Origin: Candidatus Saccharimonadales bacterium
Lineage (GTDB): Bacteria; Patescibacteriota; Saccharimonadia; Saccharimonadales; JACDBH01
Direction: 5' to 3'
Assembly: GCA_041752595.1 (NCBI GenBank)
Contig: JBGSWE010000003.1
Coordinates: forward strand, 13,720 to 77,719
Length of the DNA: 64,000 nt
Shown here: positions 355-13,766 of the stretch, one piece after another
Layout of the letters: every line of letters starts with the position of its first letter
How positions within the stretch are numbered: the stretch's first letter is position 1
Made by a program: the position numbers and the translations under genes
The notes under the pieces: generated by a model
What the model saw: the letters and a program-made list of their open reading frames with translations, nothing else
Databases searched by the model: none
Told to the model about the DNA's origin: nothing

Positions 355-442
355 GTCCCAAGTGTTGTCAGGCGGCCCTGAGCACTTTGTTGGGACTGTC
401 CCAAGTGTTGTCGGGTGGCCCCGGAACACTTTTGGTTGGGAC
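355..442 (-). repeat. two tandem copies of a GC-rich hairpin unit (about 42-45 nt each)
   Basis: Units at 355-396 and 398-442 both start GTCCCAAGTGTTGTC and end (T)TGGGAC. The GTCCCAA/TTGGGAC arms pair. They begin 3 nt past the stop of the minus-strand ORF 445-843. Confidence 0.65.
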
Positions 443-444
443 GA

Positions 445-843
445 TCATTCGTAGAGAGGATTCACGAATGTGAATGAATCTTCTGATGAGACGGCGCGAG
501 CGTCGAAGCTGTCTTCGGTGATGATGGCGGTCTTCTCGTCGTCTGAGAAGAGATTGGAAAGGTCGATTGCCGAAGCAAACAGGGTCTTCAGGACTTTGGT
601 GACTTGAGCTTCTGTGACATCGGGGTTCATCTCGATGATGAGCTTGGTGTCGAACAACGTGATGTCGATGATTTCACCGGAGCCTTGCAAGCCACGAGCG
701 GAAGCAAGAAGCCATATGCGTGAAGAGACGGTGTTCTTGATGTTTGCGTAGCTCAGCTGCACGATTGTGCCGTCACGAAGTTTTCGGATTTGGGTGACGA
801 CGAAGGTTGCCTCGAAACATGGAACAACGTATTCGGTCTTCAT
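445..843 (-). CDS. hypothetical protein (132 aa) in a GC-elevated cassette
   Basis: ORF track. Strong SD (TAGGAGGA) lies 6 nt upstream of the ATG at 843. No recognisable motif. Confidence 0.6.
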   Translation of the reverse strand: MKTEYVVPCFEATFVVTQIRKLRDGTIVQLSYANIKNTVSSRIWLLASARGLQGSGEIIDITLFDTKLIIEMNPDVTEAQVTKVLKTLFASAIDLSNLFSDDEKTAIITEDSFDARAVSSEDSFTFVNPLYE

Positions 844-8119: not shown

Positions 8120-8186
8120 ATTATTTTAACTTCTTTGATCATGGACAAATCGCTAAAGACGATTCGGATTGATATAATCAGTCATT

Positions 8187-8693
8187 ATGAATCGAGTTGT
8201 AGTTATTGGTTGTCCGGGTGCTGGTAAGACTTATTTTTCACGCGAATTAGCAAGAAAAACTGATTTACGGGTTATTCATATGGATGGTTATTTTCATGAG
8301 GAAGATAAAGATTATTTGAATAATCGTGAAGCCTGGCGTGAAAAAGTGAGGGAACTCGCCAAAGACGATAAGTGGATTATGGAAGGCAACTATAAGTCCG
8401 ATACTTTTGACATTAGATTCCCCGTTGCTGATGTAATTATTCATATGGACTTTCCTAGGTATATAACAGTTCCCAGGGTTCTAAAACGTCGCGTACAGTA
8501 TAGAAATAAACACAGGGAAGAAATGCCAGATACATGGGTAGAGAAAATCGATCCAGCCTTTTTTAAATATGTGCTTCGCTATCACAAAGCAGATCGTCCC
8601 GATGTTCTTCGTCGCTTAAAAGAGTATCCCGATAAGAGGGTAGTTACTTTGAAAAGCCCAAGGGCTGCTAGGCGTTACCTCGGATCACAATAG
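8187..8693 (+). CDS. P-loop kinase-like ATPase (adenylate kinase / topology-modulation FlaR-like)
   Basis: N-terminal P-loop VIGCPGAGKTYFSRELA. Small size of 168 aa. Confidence 0.6.
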   Translation: MNRVVVIGCPGAGKTYFSRELARKTDLRVIHMDGYFHEEDKDYLNNREAWREKVRELAKDDKWIMEGNYKSDTFDIRFPVADVIIHMDFPRYITVPRVLKRRVQYRNKHREEMPDTWVEKIDPAFFKYVLRYHKADRPDVLRRLKEYPDKRVVTLKSPRAARRYLGSQ

Positions 8694-8720
8694 AGCAATA
8701 AGATTATTCTTGTACGAGTA

Positions 8721-9121
8721 CTTAGATACCTGGAATGCCTCTTTCAAGTAGATCTTCTTTGGTTTCGAATTCTAAATAGTTTTGAGTTAGTTCTTCACCT
8801 TGCGCTATATCACGCTCTGCAACTAAATAGGCATTTTCGTAATTTTGGTCTTGGGTTAGGTTTGCCTCAGTAGGAATGGTTTATGAATTTTGAAACATCA
8901 AAATCTACGTGCCACATTTGTGTAGGCTGGTCAAAAAAACCCCACCACCTTAACTCAACTTTTTCTTTTTCACTTAATTTATCGAATTCTGTTTGAGTAA
9001 TATTCAAATCGAGAGCGGGGCTGGCCGTATATATCAATTCATCTTTTTTAATGTCTTGGTCAGCAAATAGTCCAATACCATGCTTACTAGAATTATCTAA
9101 CTTATATTTGATATGAATCAT
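8721..9121 (-). pseudogene. SET-domain protein gene disrupted by two single-nucleotide frame shifts
   Basis: Frame 1 (9121->8870) ends ...FINHSY then TGA. The next frame (8868->8821) reads EANLTQDQNYENAYLV. A third frame (8819->8721) reads AERDIAQGEELTQNYLEFETKEDLLERGIPGI*. Joined, they give a full SET fold (GIGLFA...NHS...GEELT.NY). Confidence 0.7.
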
Positions 9122-9175
9122 ATCAAAAGTATATCATTCAGCTCTTTTGAATAAATTAAGTCGACCTAAAGCTAT

Positions 9176-9204
9176 TTGTATATAATTGTTTTAAATGATA
9201 TAAT
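9176..9204 (+). promoter_or_regulatory. sigma70-type promoter of the small-TM cassette
   Basis: TTGTAT (9176-9181), 17-nt spacer, TATAAT (9199-9204). Confidence 0.55.
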
Positions 9205-9289
9205 ATAGTTATAGTTTCACAACTCGGTGAATCTCGATGTGCTTGGCAATGCTAGGTACACACTTTTCCCTAAGGAGGGAGGTGATTTA

Positions 9290-9517
9290 ATGTTGGAAAG
9301 ATTTGAAAACGCGTGGTTTGGTCTGGTGATTTTCATCATTGCTTGGTGCATTTTCGGCATCGCAGGCTTGATTCCTTGGGATTACTCCCAAGTAGATCCA
9401 AACTGGGAATGGCATATGAATACTCATAACGCTTGGTTGGCTTGGGGACTTTTCGTCACCCTTGCTGCAACAGCTTTTGGGTTCTTTGCCTACGCCGTCA
9501 AGCGTTGGACTGACTAG
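9290..9517 (+). CDS. small two-TM membrane protein (75 aa)
   Basis: SD AAGGAGGGAGG lies upstream of the ATG at 9290. Two hydrophobic helices, Trp-rich loop. GC is higher than the flanks. Confidence 0.65.
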   Translation: MLERFENAWFGLVIFIIAWCIFGIAGLIPWDYSQVDPNWEWHMNTHNAWLAWGLFVTLAATAFGFFAYAVKRWTD

Positions 9518-9742
9518 CCAGCACTTCAATAACTCTGCCCAGAGTATAAATCTTACGCAAGTAAGAAAGTGGTTAATGGAGAAATCCATTGTCTGCAAGG
9601 GCAAGCTATCATCTGGCAATAGATAGCTTGAGCGTACGGTCTCGATGAAATGTTAGTCTAATACCTAACTATAAGTTGAGAATAAGGCGTAAGCCAAGGG
9701 GTAGTTGAGAACTATATTTTATATATTTTTCCTACTCCTCAA

Positions 9743-9798
9743 AAAACGTCAATGAATATTTTTCATTCTGATGAGTCTAATTAAAGACGAAACGTTTT
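9743..9798 (+). ncRNA. type III hammerhead ribozyme
   Basis: AAAACGU-C / AAUGAA-UAUUU-UUCAUU / CUGAUGA / GUCU-AAUUAA-AGAC / GAA / ACGUUUU. All core positions are present, with a GUC cleavage triplet (C17 = 9750) and helices I/II/III of 6/4/7 bp. Confidence 0.88.
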
Positions 9799-9799
9799 A

Positions 9800-11032
9800 C
9801 TATTCGTAACGCAATGATTCGATGGGGTCTTTGCGGGCGGCTTTGATTGCTGGGATTGTGCCAAAAATAATACCCACAACTGCCGAAACGCCGACTGCTA
9901 CAGCAATAATTTGCCATGTTACGGCCGGTTGCAAATCTGTTGTTATCCTAAAAACTGCGTTTCCGAGTAGGGCTATAAATACACCAATCACTCCACCAAA
10001 GACACTAATTACAGCTGCTTCAATTAAGAATTGGCTGTATATCTGGCGATTTGTGGCGCCCAAGCTTTTCCTGACACCAATTTCACGAGTACGTTCAGTG
10101 ACGCTAACGAACATAATGTTCATTATTCCAATACCACCAACCAACAATGAAATAGCGGCAACACCTGCTACGAATGTTGTTGCAATAGATACTGTATCCC
10201 GAGCTATTATTTCTGTTTCGCTAGATTTTAATACAGTGAAGTCGGCTTGTCCGCCGTGAGTTATTAAGAGCTGGCTATTGGTGGCTTGAACTAGAGATTC
10301 GGGCGAAACATCTTGTTTGGGTAGTAGCATTAACTGATAGATGTTTGGTGCTCCGCCGGCCAAAGATTTAGCAACTGGAAATGGAATAAATATTGATTTA
10401 TTAAGATCTGTAACGGCACTTAGAGGGTTGGTTTTAAACTCGTCAAACACTCCACCCACGATAAAATCCTGGTCTCTGATTGATATTAGTTTACCAAGTG
10501 GTACGTTTTCCTTAAATAATTCTTCGGCTACACGTTTACCCACTACAACAACATTAGTACTAGTATCATCAAAAAACGAACCATAGACAACTTGCTGGCC
10601 TAAAACTTCTGGTAATTTGGAAGTGCTTGCAATAATTGTAGCGTCTTTGTAAGTTTCGTTTTCGAAGTTTTTTACCTGTCCAGATATTGTTGCAAGTGGA
10701 ACAACTACTTCTACATCTGGTAGTTTTTTTAATGCTTCAAAATCTTGTTCGGTTAAACTGTTGCTACCTAAGGCAGCGAGATAGTTTACGTTTGAGACAT
10801 TTCCTGACTCGTCTCTTACGGCAATTTGTCCAGAACGGACAGTAACCAGCTGCTCGTTACCAGACTGATTAGTTGATGCAACCTGGCGTCTCACGCCTTC
10901 ACCTAGCGAAACCATCATAATTACTGAGGCTACACCAATAATTATGCCCATCATTGTAAGAGTGCTTCTGAGTTTGTTGCTCCTGATTGATTCAAGAGCC
11001 ATGCGTGTATTGGTATTAAAATGGCTGGTCAT
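9800..11032 (-). CDS. ABC transporter permease, MacB/FtsX family
   Basis: N-terminal TM, large periplasmic MacB-like domain, C-terminal FtsX 3-TM block (ERTREIGVRKSLGA). Confidence 0.88.
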   Translation of the reverse strand: MTSHFNTNTRMALESIRSNKLRSTLTMMGIIIGVASVIMMVSLGEGVRRQVASTNQSGNEQLVTVRSGQIAVRDESGNVSNVNYLAALGSNSLTEQDFEALKKLPDVEVVVPLATISGQVKNFENETYKDATIIASTSKLPEVLGQQVVYGSFFDDTSTNVVVVGKRVAEELFKENVPLGKLISIRDQDFIVGGVFDEFKTNPLSAVTDLNKSIFIPFPVAKSLAGGAPNIYQLMLLPKQDVSPESLVQATNSQLLITHGGQADFTVLKSSETEIIARDTVSIATTFVAGVAAISLLVGGIGIMNIMFVSVTERTREIGVRKSLGATNRQIYSQFLIEAAVISVFGGVIGVFIALLGNAVFRITTDLQPAVTWQIIAVAVGVSAVVGIIFGTIPAIKAARKDPIESLRYE

Positions 11033-11922
11033 TTCTTAACCTTCTTTTTAGCAGGAGTTTTAGTCTTCTTAGCCTTGGGCGATTTTTTGGTCTTCTTATT
11101 GGTTAAATGTTTTCTGGCTGGTGCGGGCCGGCTAGGGATCTCATTTAGATACGCCGAAACACCCTCTAGTTGCTCATCTTCATCATTCCTGGGTTGTTCA
11201 TCACCGCCACTACGGGCTCTTTTAGGAACCTCACCTAACTTAGTTGATTCGTCATAAACAATTGATCCATCAACCACGTATAAGACTCTAGTAGCATATC
11301 TGGTTAGCTCTGGGTTGTGGGTGACCATTAGAATTGTGCTGCCAGTAGAATGCAGTTCTGCTAATAGCTCCATAACTACTTTGCTACTCAAGCTATCTAA
11401 GTTGCCAGTTGGTTCGTCCGCGATAATTAAATCTGGGTTGTTTACTAGTGCTCGTGCAATGGCCACGCGCTGGGCCTGGCCACCAGACAACGCCTTGGGA
11501 TAATAGTATTCACGGTCAGAAAGTCCTACACGTTCTAGTGCAGCTGCAGCCTGATTAAGTCTTTTAGTTCTAGACACTCCTTTGTAAGACAAGGGAAGGG
11601 CGACATTATCAAGCGCGGTTAATCTAGGCAATAAATTAAATGACTGAAAAATAAATCCAATATGATCCCTACGTGCTTTGGCCAATCTATTCGGCCTTAG
11701 TCTTGATACTACTCGGCTACTCAAGCTGTAAGTTCCATGGGTTGGACGGTCTAATAAACCGATTATATTCATAAGTGTAGATTTGCCAGAGCCGCTTGGA
11801 CCCATTATCGCAACAAATTCACCCTTAGTAACTGTTAGGCTTATTTCATCCAAAGCGACAGTGGTAGCATTACCAAATCCATACAATTTTGATACTTCTT
11901 TGAGCTCAATCACAACAGACAT
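11029..11922 (-). CDS. ABC transporter ATP-binding protein (MacB/LolD type) with a Lys-rich C-terminal tail
   Basis: Walker A GPSGSGKST, signature LSGGQAQR, Walker B LIIADEPT. Tail ...KKTKKSPKAKKTKTPAKKKVKK. 4-nt overlap with the permease gene. Confidence 0.93.
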   Translation of the reverse strand: MSVVIELKEVSKLYGFGNATTVALDEISLTVTKGEFVAIMGPSGSGKSTLMNIIGLLDRPTHGTYSLSSRVVSRLRPNRLAKARRDHIGFIFQSFNLLPRLTALDNVALPLSYKGVSRTKRLNQAAAALERVGLSDREYYYPKALSGGQAQRVAIARALVNNPDLIIADEPTGNLDSLSSKVVMELLAELHSTGSTILMVTHNPELTRYATRVLYVVDGSIVYDESTKLGEVPKRARSGGDEQPRNDEDEQLEGVSAYLNEIPSRPAPARKHLTNKKTKKSPKAKKTKTPAKKKVKK

Positions 11923-12069: not shown

Positions 12070-12159
12070 GGAGAGGTCGCCTAGTGGCCTATGGCGCCGC
12101 CTTGGAAAGGCGGTTTGGGGGCAACTCCATCGAGGGTTCGAATCCCTCTCTCTCCGCCA
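12070..12159 (+). tRNA. tRNA-Ser (anticodon GGA), long variable arm, CCA encoded
   Basis: Acceptor GGAGAGG/TCTCTCC, anticodon stem CCGCC/GGCGG with loop TTGGAAA, T-arm GAGGG-TTCGAAT-CCCTC, 18-nt variable arm, 3' GCCA. Confidence 0.9.
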
Positions 12160-12164
12160 AATTT

Positions 12165-12190
12165 AAAAACCCACCTGAGTGTGGGTTTTT
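12165..12190. terminator. bidirectional rho-independent terminator
   Basis: AAAAACCCAC (12165-12174) pairs with GTGGGTTTTT (12181-12190). A/T tracts on both sides serve the tRNA (+) and the 12219-12479 gene (-). Confidence 0.75.
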
Positions 12191-12218
12191 AAATAACTAT
12201 CTGGTCAAAATATTGGAT

Positions 12219-12479
12219 TTAGCGTTTGCGGCGTCCGCTTAGTCTAGCTAAAAAGATTGACTCAACTAAGCTCCAGATAACTGCATTTGCAAGGAAAATA
12301 GCAGATGCAACACCTGTAACAAACAAGATATCTTGGCCAGTTCTAGAATCTACTAGACTTACTAATCCAGCTGTTAATAGTGAGAACACAATTAAGAATA
12401 TGTAAATGTGCTGTAATTTTTGTCTTTCGTTTGTAGATTTATTCCACTCTAACACTGCATTAAACAATGAATTATACAT
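12219..12479 (-). CDS. small membrane protein (86 aa)
   Basis: ORF track. Two hydrophobic helices and a basic C-terminus. Confidence 0.55.
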   Translation of the reverse strand: MYNSLFNAVLEWNKSTNERQKLQHIYIFLIVFSLLTAGLVSLVDSRTGQDILFVTGVASAIFLANAVIWSLVESIFLARLSGRRKR

Positions 12480-12599
12480 CGGGTGAGTCTCCTATTTATG
12501 ATAATAATATAACATTGTTTGTGTTAATTATCAACATAGTGGTATTACTATTTTGAAAGAGTGAAATATAGGAGCATAATGAAAATACAAGGAGATATT

Positions 12600-12800
12600 A
12601 TGAAAACTAAACAAACGTATTTACTTATCGGCACAGTATTGAGTTGGGCAATTGGTTATTTGGGTGCTGATAGATTTTATAAAGGTGATGTAGCTTTGGG
12701 GGTTATCAAACTCATTACTCTAGGTGGCTTTGGTGTTTGGTGGATTATAGACGCAGCAATTTGGACCTATAATTTAGGCAAATCTCTTGATAATAAATAG
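12600..12800 (+). CDS. TM2 domain-containing membrane protein
   Basis: GYLGADRFYKGDVALGVIKLITLGGFGVWWIIDA matches the TM2 pattern. SD GGAG precedes the ATG at 12600. Confidence 0.75.
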   Translation: MKTKQTYLLIGTVLSWAIGYLGADRFYKGDVALGVIKLITLGGFGVWWIIDAAIWTYNLGKSLDNK

Positions 12801-12808
12801 TTAGATGT

Positions 12809-12866
12809 TTCACTTTTCGTCTTGATCTTAGACTCATCAGCATGACAACGTAGTCATAGAAGTGAA
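12809..12866 (-). ncRNA. type III hammerhead ribozyme
   Basis: Minus strand reads UUCACUU-C / UAUGAC-UACGUU-GUCAUG / CUGAUGA / GUCU-AAGAUCA-AGAC / GAA / AAGUGAA. Full core, C17 = 12859, helices I/II/III of 6/4/7 bp. Confidence 0.88.
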
Positions 12867-12941
12867 GATAACAGACAGATAGTTTGAGGGGTTGGCGGGA
12901 GCCGAATGCCTGGTTGTCCCAAACTGACTCTGCCTGTTATC
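12867..12941 (-). other. 13-bp hairpin directly abutting the hammerhead 5' end
   Basis: Minus-strand GATAACAGGCAGA (12941-12929) pairs with TCTGTCTGTTATC (12879-12867), with one G-U pair and a 49-nt loop. No gap before helix III of the ribozyme. Confidence 0.65.
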
Positions 12942-12972
12942 CGCACTTTATCCTTTTTTGGTTTGAGGGTTT

Positions 12973-13194
12973 TTAGGCCATCATGGCTTTGATTGGTGAT
13001 TCACGGATTGGTGCACGGAACTCCTCGGCAGTAAACTCACATTTTTCATGAGTGGCGAGGCAGGCGAAATTGCACCAACATTGTCTGCGTCCATCACATC
13101 CCTCAACCAGTGCCGATCCTCGACGAATTACAATGACGCGGGCGTCACAAACGTGTGGTGACTGTGGTTTTTGTCGGCGAAACGGGAATTTCAT
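12973..13194 (-). CDS. small Cys-rich protein (73 aa)
   Basis: ORF track. Seven Cys (CDARV, GCDGRRQCWCNFAC, HEKC) suggest metal binding. GC-rich. Confidence 0.5.
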   Translation of the reverse strand: MKFPFRRQKPQSPHVCDARVIVIRRGSALVEGCDGRRQCWCNFACLATHEKCEFTAEEFRAPIRESPIKAMMA

Positions 13195-13206
13195 CGCTTC
13201 AGTTGC

Positions 13207-13476
13207 TCAGTCGACTGGGGGCTCTTCTTCATGATCATCTGCCGTTTCATCGACGTATTCACCGTTGAGCCGGTCGACGATCTCTTGCAAGAGCTCATTT
13301 GATAGGCCATCCGGCGGTACGATGATTGTACCGTTGGTGAGTACGAATTCTTCAAAGACAATTTCTCTACCCATGACATCGTTGATCAGTACATGAGCTT
13401 GTTCGATCCTGAAATCACCCTCTGCATCGAACGACAAATCATCGTCCCCATTCTGCCAGTTGATCTTCAGTTTCAT
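13207..13476 (-). CDS. small acidic protein (89 aa)
   Basis: SD AAGGAGAG precedes the ATG at 13476 (MKLKINWQNGDDD...). Acidic C-terminus (DETADDHEEEPPVD). GC-rich. Confidence 0.6.
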   Translation of the reverse strand: MKLKINWQNGDDDLSFDAEGDFRIEQAHVLINDVMGREIVFEEFVLTNGTIIVPPDGLSNELLQEIVDRLNGEYVDETADDHEEEPPVD

Positions 13477-13766
13477 ATCTCTCCTTAGCTCACTCGCCAC
13501 GGCAGGATGCCCTCTACAACTTTAGTAAAGTGTGTGTATTTGGTAACACACAAGGTGAGTAAGGAATCCAAAATAATGATTACGAACTCTTTACTAACCT
13601 TGTGCATTGATACACATTTAACTATCTATCTGCTTGTAAAATAACTACCCTAACATTCTGCTAAGGACCTAACAAGTTTAGCAATTATAGATATTTTGTC
13701 AATTTTATACTATAGTAATCCTAATTATTATATTGAACGAAGGGTGTAAGGTAGTAGACTAGAGTC

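Follow-up and report, generated by a model that had tools for sequence, protein, structure and literature searches.

The locus

The stretch analysed here, called the window throughout, is a segment of 64,000 nucleotides (nt) from contig JBGSWE010000003.1 of a Candidatus Saccharimonadales bacterium. On its minus strand lies a complete type III hammerhead ribozyme, which we call HH2. The locus is unusually clean and belongs to a tiny genome with little spare sequence: one small gene is followed by a long hairpin, the hairpin by the ribozyme, and the ribozyme by a convergent gene only 8 nt away. A partner of the same class, HH1, lies on the opposite strand within 3.1 kb. The features are collected in Table 1.

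Hammerheads are chemically among the best-understood ribozymes, yet what they do in bacteria and phages is, according to reviews, largely unknown (PMC6155905, PMC6765202). Those in bacteria flank small, non-conserved genes, often in prophages, and cleave in vitro and in vivo; mRNA processing and effects exerted from the 3' untranslated region (UTR) have been suggested, while their roles have stayed elusive (PMC3088659, PMC6155905, PMC6765202).

Table 1. Coordinates of HH2, its parts and the features around it, in window positions
Feature	Position	Strand	Basis or remark
HH2, complete type III hammerhead	12809..12866	-	sequence, full-length RF00008 match, descriptor scan, fold of the 58-mer
HH2 helix III 5' strand, UUCACUU	12866-12860	-
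HH2 C17	12859	-	predicted cleavage between 12859 and 12858
HH2 helix I stem-loop, UAUGAC/GUCAUG with loop UACGUU	12858-12841	-
HH2 CUGAUGA	12840-12834	-
HH2 helix II stem-loop, GUCU/AGAC with loop AAGAUCA	12833-12819	-
HH2 GAA	12818-12816	-
HH2 helix III 3' strand, AAGUGAA	12815-12809	-
Long hairpin directly 5' of HH2	12867..12941	-	13-bp outer stem (12941-12929 with 12879-12867) and inner stem-loop; inverted-repeat search, fold
AAGUG, copy of the start of the HH2 helix III 3' strand	12945..12949	-	fold of the context and of the 5' product
TM2-domain gene, convergent	12561..12800	+	Pfam TM2, E=2.3e-13; stop codon 8 nt from the 3' end of HH2
Upstream cargo gene, 89 aa, acidic (pI 4.05), AAGGAG ribosome-binding site	13207..13476	-	list of open reading frames, sequence
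Possible second small open reading frame, 73 aa, Cys-rich	12973..13194	-	mechanical open reading frame
Promoter-like site: TTGACA, 16 nt, TAAACT, with TG	13675..13702	-	consensus scan, 10/12 matches; consensus match only
tRNA-Ser(GGA)	12070..12159	+	Rfam; borders the variable region holding HH2
HH1, partner type III hammerhead	9743..9798	+	RF00008, 46.5 bits, E=2e-9

A complete type III hammerhead

Read on the minus strand, HH2 runs UUCACUU-C / UAUGAC-UACGUU-GUCAUG / CUGAUGA / GUCU-AAGAUCA-AGAC / GAA / AAGUGAA. An earlier, sequence-only reading of the window had proposed the ribozyme at these positions and on this strand, with an intact core, helices I, II and III of 6, 4 and 7 base pairs (bp), a UUC triplet obeying the NUH rule, and the stop codon of a TM2-domain gene 8 nt away; base for base, the sequence bears this out. 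The core nucleotides C3 U4 G5 A6 N7 G8 A9 and G12 A13 A14 that mark a type III hammerhead are all present, A15.1 (12815) pairs with U16.1 (12860), and position 17 is a C, that is, not a G. Loops close helices I and II, while helix III is open. Published acceptance rules ask for three helices and no mispair next to the core at N1.1-N2.1 and G10.1-C11.1 (PMC3088659); HH2 has a U1.1·G2.1 wobble at the first of these positions and the G10.1-C11.1 pair at the second. Folded alone, the 58-mer adopts the hammerhead secondary structure as its minimum-free-energy state.

The loops place HH2 within a subtype that recurs in phage contigs and is defined by a 6-bp helix I with a 6-nt loop (typically U at position 1 and GU at positions 4-5) and a 4-bp helix II with an A-rich loop. 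Loop I of HH2, UACGUU, follows the pattern, and loop II is A-rich with 7 nt against the 4 nt typical of the subtype, the one respect in which HH2 departs from it. No Watson-Crick pseudoknot between loops I and II is evident. HH2 shows every structural feature of a type III hammerhead that we examined, and only the curated Rfam score falls short. We regard it as almost certain that HH2 is a real hammerhead motif and, judging from its sequence, very likely that it cleaves itself.

The search with RF00008 that the sequence-only reading had proposed as a check covered 301 nt and matched the model over its full length, precisely at 12809-12866(-). The score is 36.5 bits and the E-value 1.6e-6, or about 3e-4 when scaled to the whole window. 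The curated gathering score is 48.5, and because 36.5 bits falls under it, a default Rfam run of the window reports a tRNA only and does not list HH2. The gathering score is an annotation threshold and not a biochemical criterion. A descriptor scan of both strands of the window gave two matches at the strict setting of 6/4/7 bp, HH2 and HH1.

The low score is what could be cited for a chance resemblance to the hammerhead consensus, an explanation that we consider effectively refuted. All 11 conserved core nucleotides and 17 base pairs are present, 200 shuffled windows gave a mean of 0.015 descriptor matches each even at a looser threshold of 4/3/4 bp, loop I fits the subtype, and a second copy with compensatory changes lies 3 kb off.

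Covariation and the wider subtype

In the comparison of HH1 with HH2, helix II is the same, helix I differs by one compensatory change, and helix III is wholly different in sequence yet complementary. This contrast, on which the sequence-only reading had built an argument from covariation, holds in all three helices on sequence alignment, and manual pairing counts extend it to four distinct hammerheads from Saccharibacteria and to 38 sequences of the subtype. Among the former 95.6% of cells pair and 13 of the 17 pairs are changed on both sides, while slid controls pair at 33-44%. Among the latter, in an alignment fitted to a covariance model that itself favours the structure, 90.2% of cells pair, and slid controls reach 34-44%. 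Beyond the ribozymes themselves the HH1 and HH2 modules share no sequence.

The wider set was assembled in two steps. A pattern of core plus helix II matched more than 120 phage contigs, and a covariance model built from the four Saccharibacteria sequences recognised 47 further full type III hammerheads in those contigs, several of which carry two to four on one strand. The phage copies are intercistronic: the preceding gene stops about 25-45 nt upstream, and the next one starts about 16-45 nt downstream. The same model gave no match in 644 kb of unrelated bacterial loci, and in 540 kb of loci from Saccharibacteria and other members of the candidate phyla radiation (CPR) it found only its five source hammerheads, whose scores are high by construction, the next best match reaching 18.7 bits. 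Exact-pattern scans of viral contigs with the helix I and II sequences of HH2, HH1 and L085, a contig from a relative described below, gave no matches.

Two weaker candidates were rejected along the way. The site at 433-511 (+) has CUGAUGA and GAA with weak 4-bp helices; it carries a G at 15.1, lies antisense inside the open reading frame (ORF) 445-843 and has no covariance-model match, and we judge it a chance match. A weak covariance-model match in contig L011 lies inside groEL.

A hairpin adjoining the ribozyme

Directly upstream of HH2, the hairpin at 12867-12941 adjoins the 5' end of the ribozyme with zero gap and stacks on helix III; sequence and fold agree with the gapless 13-bp hairpin of the sequence-only reading. 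No U-tract follows it on the minus strand, and it is therefore not a good terminator in that direction. Just upstream of its outer stem, the short element AAGUG (12949-12945) can pair with CACUU (12864-12860), which lengthens the hairpin across the 5' strand of helix III. The minimum-free-energy folds of the 176-nt HH2 context and of the predicted 5' cleavage product both use this pairing.

For the predicted 5' product the computed energy is -37.4 kcal/mol with the AAGUG pairing and -30.0 kcal/mol with the tail held free. The extension thus gains about -7.4 kcal/mol, compared with about -5.6 kcal/mol for helix III once that helix has become intermolecular. Six of the seven nucleotides of the helix III strand are paired in this product. 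The sequence-only reading had foreseen an upstream mRNA ending in a stable stem plus 8 nt. The stem stands, and is strengthened by the generality of such hairpins in the subtype, whereas a free tail is not what the folds predict: because AAGUG can pair with the 5' strand of helix III, the product is predicted to end with a 1-nt overhang. In the uncleaved 176-nt context the extended hairpin is the minimum-free-energy state at -46.8 kcal/mol, against -43.0 kcal/mol with the hammerhead helices enforced, in nearest-neighbour energies that leave out the tertiary contacts of the hammerhead.

This last difference bears on the possibility that HH2 is a negative or conditional control element, in which AAGUG and the hairpin compete with helix III and cleavage either lowers upstream expression or mainly destroys antisense read-through. 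The extended hairpin, which in the uncleaved RNA is favoured over the hammerhead fold by a predicted 3.8 kcal/mol, is also transcribed first, and ribozymes in bacterial 3' UTRs can alter reporter expression (PMC6765202). No ligand-binding or sensor domain is present, however, the competing pairing is short (5 bp plus a G·U), the energies ignore tertiary contacts, and an mRNA whose 3' end is buried in a hairpin should gain stability, not lose it. We consider such a control function improbable.

Adjoining hairpins recur across the subtype. Best hairpins ending 0-11 nt before position N17 were compared for 51 distinct, partly interdependent hammerheads. Their median energy is -20.1 kcal/mol, against -7.7 kcal/mol at random anchors in the same loci (p=1.7e-9; p=1e-7 when an 11-member hairpin family is left out) and -7.55 kcal/mol at anchors 40 nt after stop codons (p=7.6e-8). 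In 25 of 48 hammerheads the 3' arm ends 0-2 nt from N17, so that these hairpins overlap the 5' strand of helix III. In the predicted 5' products 4.46 of the 7 nt of the helix III strand are paired upstream, compared with 3.19 at random positions (p=6e-4). U-tracts do not follow these hairpins, and they are therefore not terminators on the ribozyme strand. The data support a 5'-adjacent hairpin as a general feature of this hammerhead subtype. A limited literature search found no description of the hairpin association or of the strand mimic.

Four IMG/VR contigs (L132, L149, L160 and L162) share a conserved hairpin, (G)GGUGUCUUCAAAGACACC, which lies directly 5' of 11 hammerheads with no U-tract after it; each of these contigs carries two to four ribozymes between small genes.

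Read on the plus strand, positions 12867-12965 form a hairpin followed by a U-rich tract (CACUUUAUCCUUUUUUGG; UUUAUCCUUUUUUGG). According to the plus-strand fold, the TM2 gene could have its intrinsic terminator here, in which case the TM2 transcript would include the antisense of HH2. An attC-like reading of the hairpin was also considered and rejected: its ends, GATAAC...GUUAUC, fit the attC core only partly, and no integrase was seen.

Two insertion slots in a conserved neighbourhood

Homologues of the neighbouring permease are named Candidatus Saccharibacteria, and eleven look-ups with them revealed conserved synteny. The gene order common to relatives is DUF1361 - HTH (helix-turn-helix) - FMN reductase - PIG-L - DUF1801 - [variable] - tRNA-Ser - ABC ATPase - permease - [variable] - PGI - ... 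- GroEL, and HH1 and HH2 occupy the two variable slots that flank the conserved ABC-transporter pair. The slots, 8120-9799 between permease and PGI and 12160-13766 between tRNA-Ser and DUF1801, are insertion hot spots whose content differs in every relative examined, with HTH genes, heliorhodopsin, a DNA glycosylase and orphan genes among it. The permease-PGI slot of the window also holds a kinase-like ATPase and a short SET-domain ORF.

No hammerhead was found in either slot of relatives with a 72-76% identical permease, searches with filters off included; on the contig of the closest permease homologue (79%) the sequence ends before the hammerhead site. Among the relatives in the look-ups, hammerheads occur in L085 only, and permease-anchored scans of genomes and metagenomes, in which the matches listed were mostly distant homologues that also served as negative controls, added one more, L016.

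The permease of L085 is 73% identical to that of the window. Two direct repeats of 115 nt on this contig, at L085:1575-1689 and L085:2373-2487, are 100% identical and 798 nt apart. Each consists of a 60-nt hairpin followed immediately by a type III hammerhead, and the 3' boundary of the repeat coincides exactly with that of helix III. Together they flank one ORF (107/134 aa), and about 20 nt separate the second from a convergent tRNA-Ser gene, the same gene that borders the variable region of HH2. By analogy with retrozymes, two ribozymes on one strand could release a unit-length RNA; the repeat could alternatively be a duplication or an assembly artefact.

This arrangement invites the idea that the modules mark the ends of cassettes that are excised as RNA and then circularised or reverse-transcribed like eukaryotic retrozymes, and their association with unrelated cargo genes at insertion hot spots would suit it. 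Against it, HH1 and HH2, being on opposite strands, cannot release a unit between them, genes for a reverse transcriptase, integrase or ligase were not seen in the vicinity, and a repeat search of the window region found no att-like repeats, including any of the tRNA-Ser gene. Moreover, a search by Perreault et al. for circular or spliced products in bacteria was negative (PMC3088659). With the provenance of the L085 repeat in doubt as well, we regard RNA-based cassette mobility as very improbable.

In L016, a distant Saccharibacterium, the hammerhead (11334-11388, -) follows a 158-aa orphan gene beside the permease and has a short hairpin on its 5' side. About 25 nt further on, to about 11270, the sequence itself, and not the terminator scan, shows a hairpin that resembles a terminator and carries a U-tract. 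Because the two coexist in one 3' region, the L016 ribozyme cannot simply replace a terminator.

The genes upstream of the five Saccharibacteria hammerheads are mutually unrelated and gave no Pfam, PHROG or PADLOC family match. Because the modules are absent from close relatives and their cargo genes are orphans unrelated to one another, the hairpin-hammerhead modules of Saccharibacteria are, by these comparisons, accessory and sporadic.

Such a distribution is also what would be expected if HH2 were a passenger that arrived with phage or other mobile DNA, has stayed intact because the insertion is recent, and has no selected role in the host. HH1 and HH2 sit in insertions absent from relatives, their cargo genes are orphans, the subtype is abundant and intercistronic in phage contigs, and TM2-domain proteins match phage families. 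On the other hand, one small genome holds two different perfect copies, both retain the 5' hairpin and both are placed precisely at the ends of convergent genes. Helix III has diverged fully while remaining complementary, which implies time spent under constraint since the two had a common ancestor, though possibly in a phage. The passenger explanation is the main rival to a function at mRNA 3' ends and, in our judgement, unlikely; control elements and RNA circles are less likely still.

Genes and signals around the two ribozymes

On the minus strand HH2 sits exactly where the 3' end of the upstream unit would be needed. The sequence-only reading had drawn this unit as an operon running from 13476 to 12973. 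The 89-aa gene is borne out, being called as a gene on an independent Logan contig as well, whereas the ORF at 12973-13194 was not called by the Logan gene caller and has no Pfam, PHROG or PADLOC family match, so that the unit may be one gene with a long 3' UTR; the region of about 340 nt behind the 89-aa gene may hold either. The 89-aa protein itself has no homologue among 5.8 billion proteins and no Pfam, PHROG or PADLOC match. Its single-sequence AlphaFold model is weak, with a predicted local distance difference test (pLDDT) score of 69.9, and matches no Protein Data Bank (PDB) entry with E below 0.001.

Upstream, the promoter-like site at 13675-13702 could, by its consensus match, drive the minus-strand unit that ends at HH2. 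The leader of about 190 nt between this site and the 89-aa gene contains an imperfect palindrome (13549-13604, -) with 26-nt arms, 77% complementarity and a 4-nt loop, which from its sequence may be a regulatory hairpin. Terminator-like sites were not found downstream on the ribozyme strand at either HH2 or HH1. Among the ORFs examined from the 8-14 kb region, Pfam and PHROGs revealed no integrase or phage structural gene, and the PHROG matches were weak and two only, the TM2 protein and the kinase-like ATPase.

HH1 shows a parallel arrangement. It ends the unit of a 96-aa orphan ORF (9227-9517), is preceded by a hairpin at about 9697-9740, and is followed after 1 nt by the convergent permease gene, stop codon first, just as HH2 ends its own small orphan-gene unit 8 nt from a convergent stop codon. 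The 225 nt that separate HH1 from the 96-aa ORF, noted at 9600-9742 (+), are strongly structured (fold of 9600-9810: z=-4.7, several hairpins) and have no Rfam match; they may belong to a long structured 3' UTR or to a small RNA that HH1 releases.

A proposed self-cleaving module at the 3' end of an mRNA

Taken together, we propose that HH2 is the downstream half of a two-part module of hairpin and hammerhead, probably active to judge from its sequence, which most likely forms the end of a small transcription unit that was acquired horizontally and occupies a variable part of the chromosome. A self-cleaving 3'-end module is the explanation of HH2 that we favour, with moderate confidence. That the formation or protection of the 3' end is the role for which HH2 has been selected we advance more tentatively, as a proposition that could well go either way.

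The mechanism that we infer comprises cleavage in vivo, a conformational switch, stabilisation of the mRNA and loss of the 3' fragment. RNA polymerase would read through the hairpin 12941-12867, a poor terminator on this strand, after which HH2 would fold and cut behind C12859. Helix III, now intermolecular (about -5.6 kcal/mol), would lose to the intramolecular AAGUG-CACUU pairing (about -7.4 kcal/mol), and because this pairing outcompetes it the 3' fragment would leave and cleavage would become irreversible. The mRNA would then end in the extended hairpin with a single overhanging C bearing a 2',3'-cyclic phosphate, resistant to 3' exonucleases, while the read-through RNA antisense to the TM2 gene would be detached with a 5'-OH and presumably degraded.

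Several points weigh against this proposal. Before cleavage, the predicted energies favour the AAGUG pairing of HH2 over its hammerhead fold by about 3.8 kcal/mol, and this pairing could inhibit the ribozyme instead of helping it. Pairing of the AAGUG type is clear in HH2 and many phage copies and not in HH1 or L085, and the phage sequences behind the hairpin statistics are related and thus not wholly independent. The hairpin beside HH2 may be there chiefly to terminate the convergent TM2 gene. As for the ribozyme itself, the RF00008 score lies 12 bits short of the gathering score, and by the NUH rule UUC is not the most active cleavage triplet. Tertiary contact between loops I and II is needed for fast hammerhead cleavage at low Mg2+, and because loop II of HH2, with 7 nt, exceeds the 4 nt of the subtype, these contacts are uncertain. 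The sampled relatives yielded no orthologue of HH2; conservation is therefore not copy-specific, and the covariation holds at the level of the class only. The insertion of HH2 may also be recent, and its intactness would then prove little.

A broader version of the 3'-end proposal would see hairpin and hammerhead as a portable, protein-independent device for forming 3' ends, common to phages and ultra-small CPR bacteria, with the ribozyme cutting just beyond a hairpin and the upstream mimic of the helix III 3' strand capturing the freed 5' strand, so that cleavage becomes irreversible and a terminator-like end resistant to exonucleases is left. We think this generalisation doubtful. If it is true, it would provide a concrete, testable function for bacterial and phage hammerheads and explain why they travel with small accessory genes. 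The HH2 locus and the hairpin statistics turn the vague idea of mRNA processing into an experiment on a 180-nt construct, and the hairpin association and strand mimic would, if confirmed, be a more interesting result than HH2 itself. For annotation, the case illustrates that standard Rfam thresholds miss genuine hammerheads in bacteria of candidate phyla.

Relation to known systems

HH2 is a new example within a known ribozyme class. The searchable literature yielded nothing relevant on hammerheads in Saccharibacteria or Patescibacteria, the former being the phylum of its host. With the type III hammerheads of RF00008 it shares an identical core, A15.1-U16.1, H17, an open helix III and capped helices I and II; with the subtype of 6-bp helix I and 4-bp helix II, the 6-nt U-rich loop I, G10.1-C11.1 and the A-rich loop II. 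We take this subtype to resemble the hammerhead of satellite tobacco ringspot virus (sTRSV). Unlike the sTRSV type, HH2 resides in a bacterial chromosome and not in a circular RNA replicon, is present as a single copy per transcript, and has a 7-nt loop II and the triplet UUC instead of GUC.

A functional parallel to the proposed mechanism involves a protein. RNase III sites of phage T7 early mRNAs leave upstream mRNAs that end in a hairpin and are protected from 3' exonucleases, and if our model is right the HH2 cut likewise leaves an upstream mRNA ending in a stable hairpin. The two are not homologous, and in HH2 the cut would be made by RNA without protein, just 3' of the hairpin and not within it, and would leave a cyclic phosphate.

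Among hammerheads, the 47 phage-contig copies are of the same subtype as HH2 and mostly have a 5' hairpin; they lie between co-directional genes, whereas HH1 and HH2 end their units beside convergent stop codons. As in the collection of Perreault et al. 2011 (PMC3088659), HH2 is intergenic beside small, non-conserved ORFs in accessory DNA, and more than one ribozyme, HH1 and HH2, occurs within a few kb; unlike that collection, no integrase or prophage lies near HH2.

A last comparison concerns the downstream fragment. As summarised for the glmS ribozyme and RNase J1 in PMC6765202, which cites Collins et al. 2007, self-cleavage yields a fragment with a 5'-OH that is open to 5' exonuclease, and the antisense read-through fragment of HH2, which would also carry a 5'-OH, may be removed in a similar way. 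The glmS ribozyme differs in its fold, its position in the 5' UTR and its dependence on a metabolite, and in HH2 the fragment to be kept would be the upstream one.

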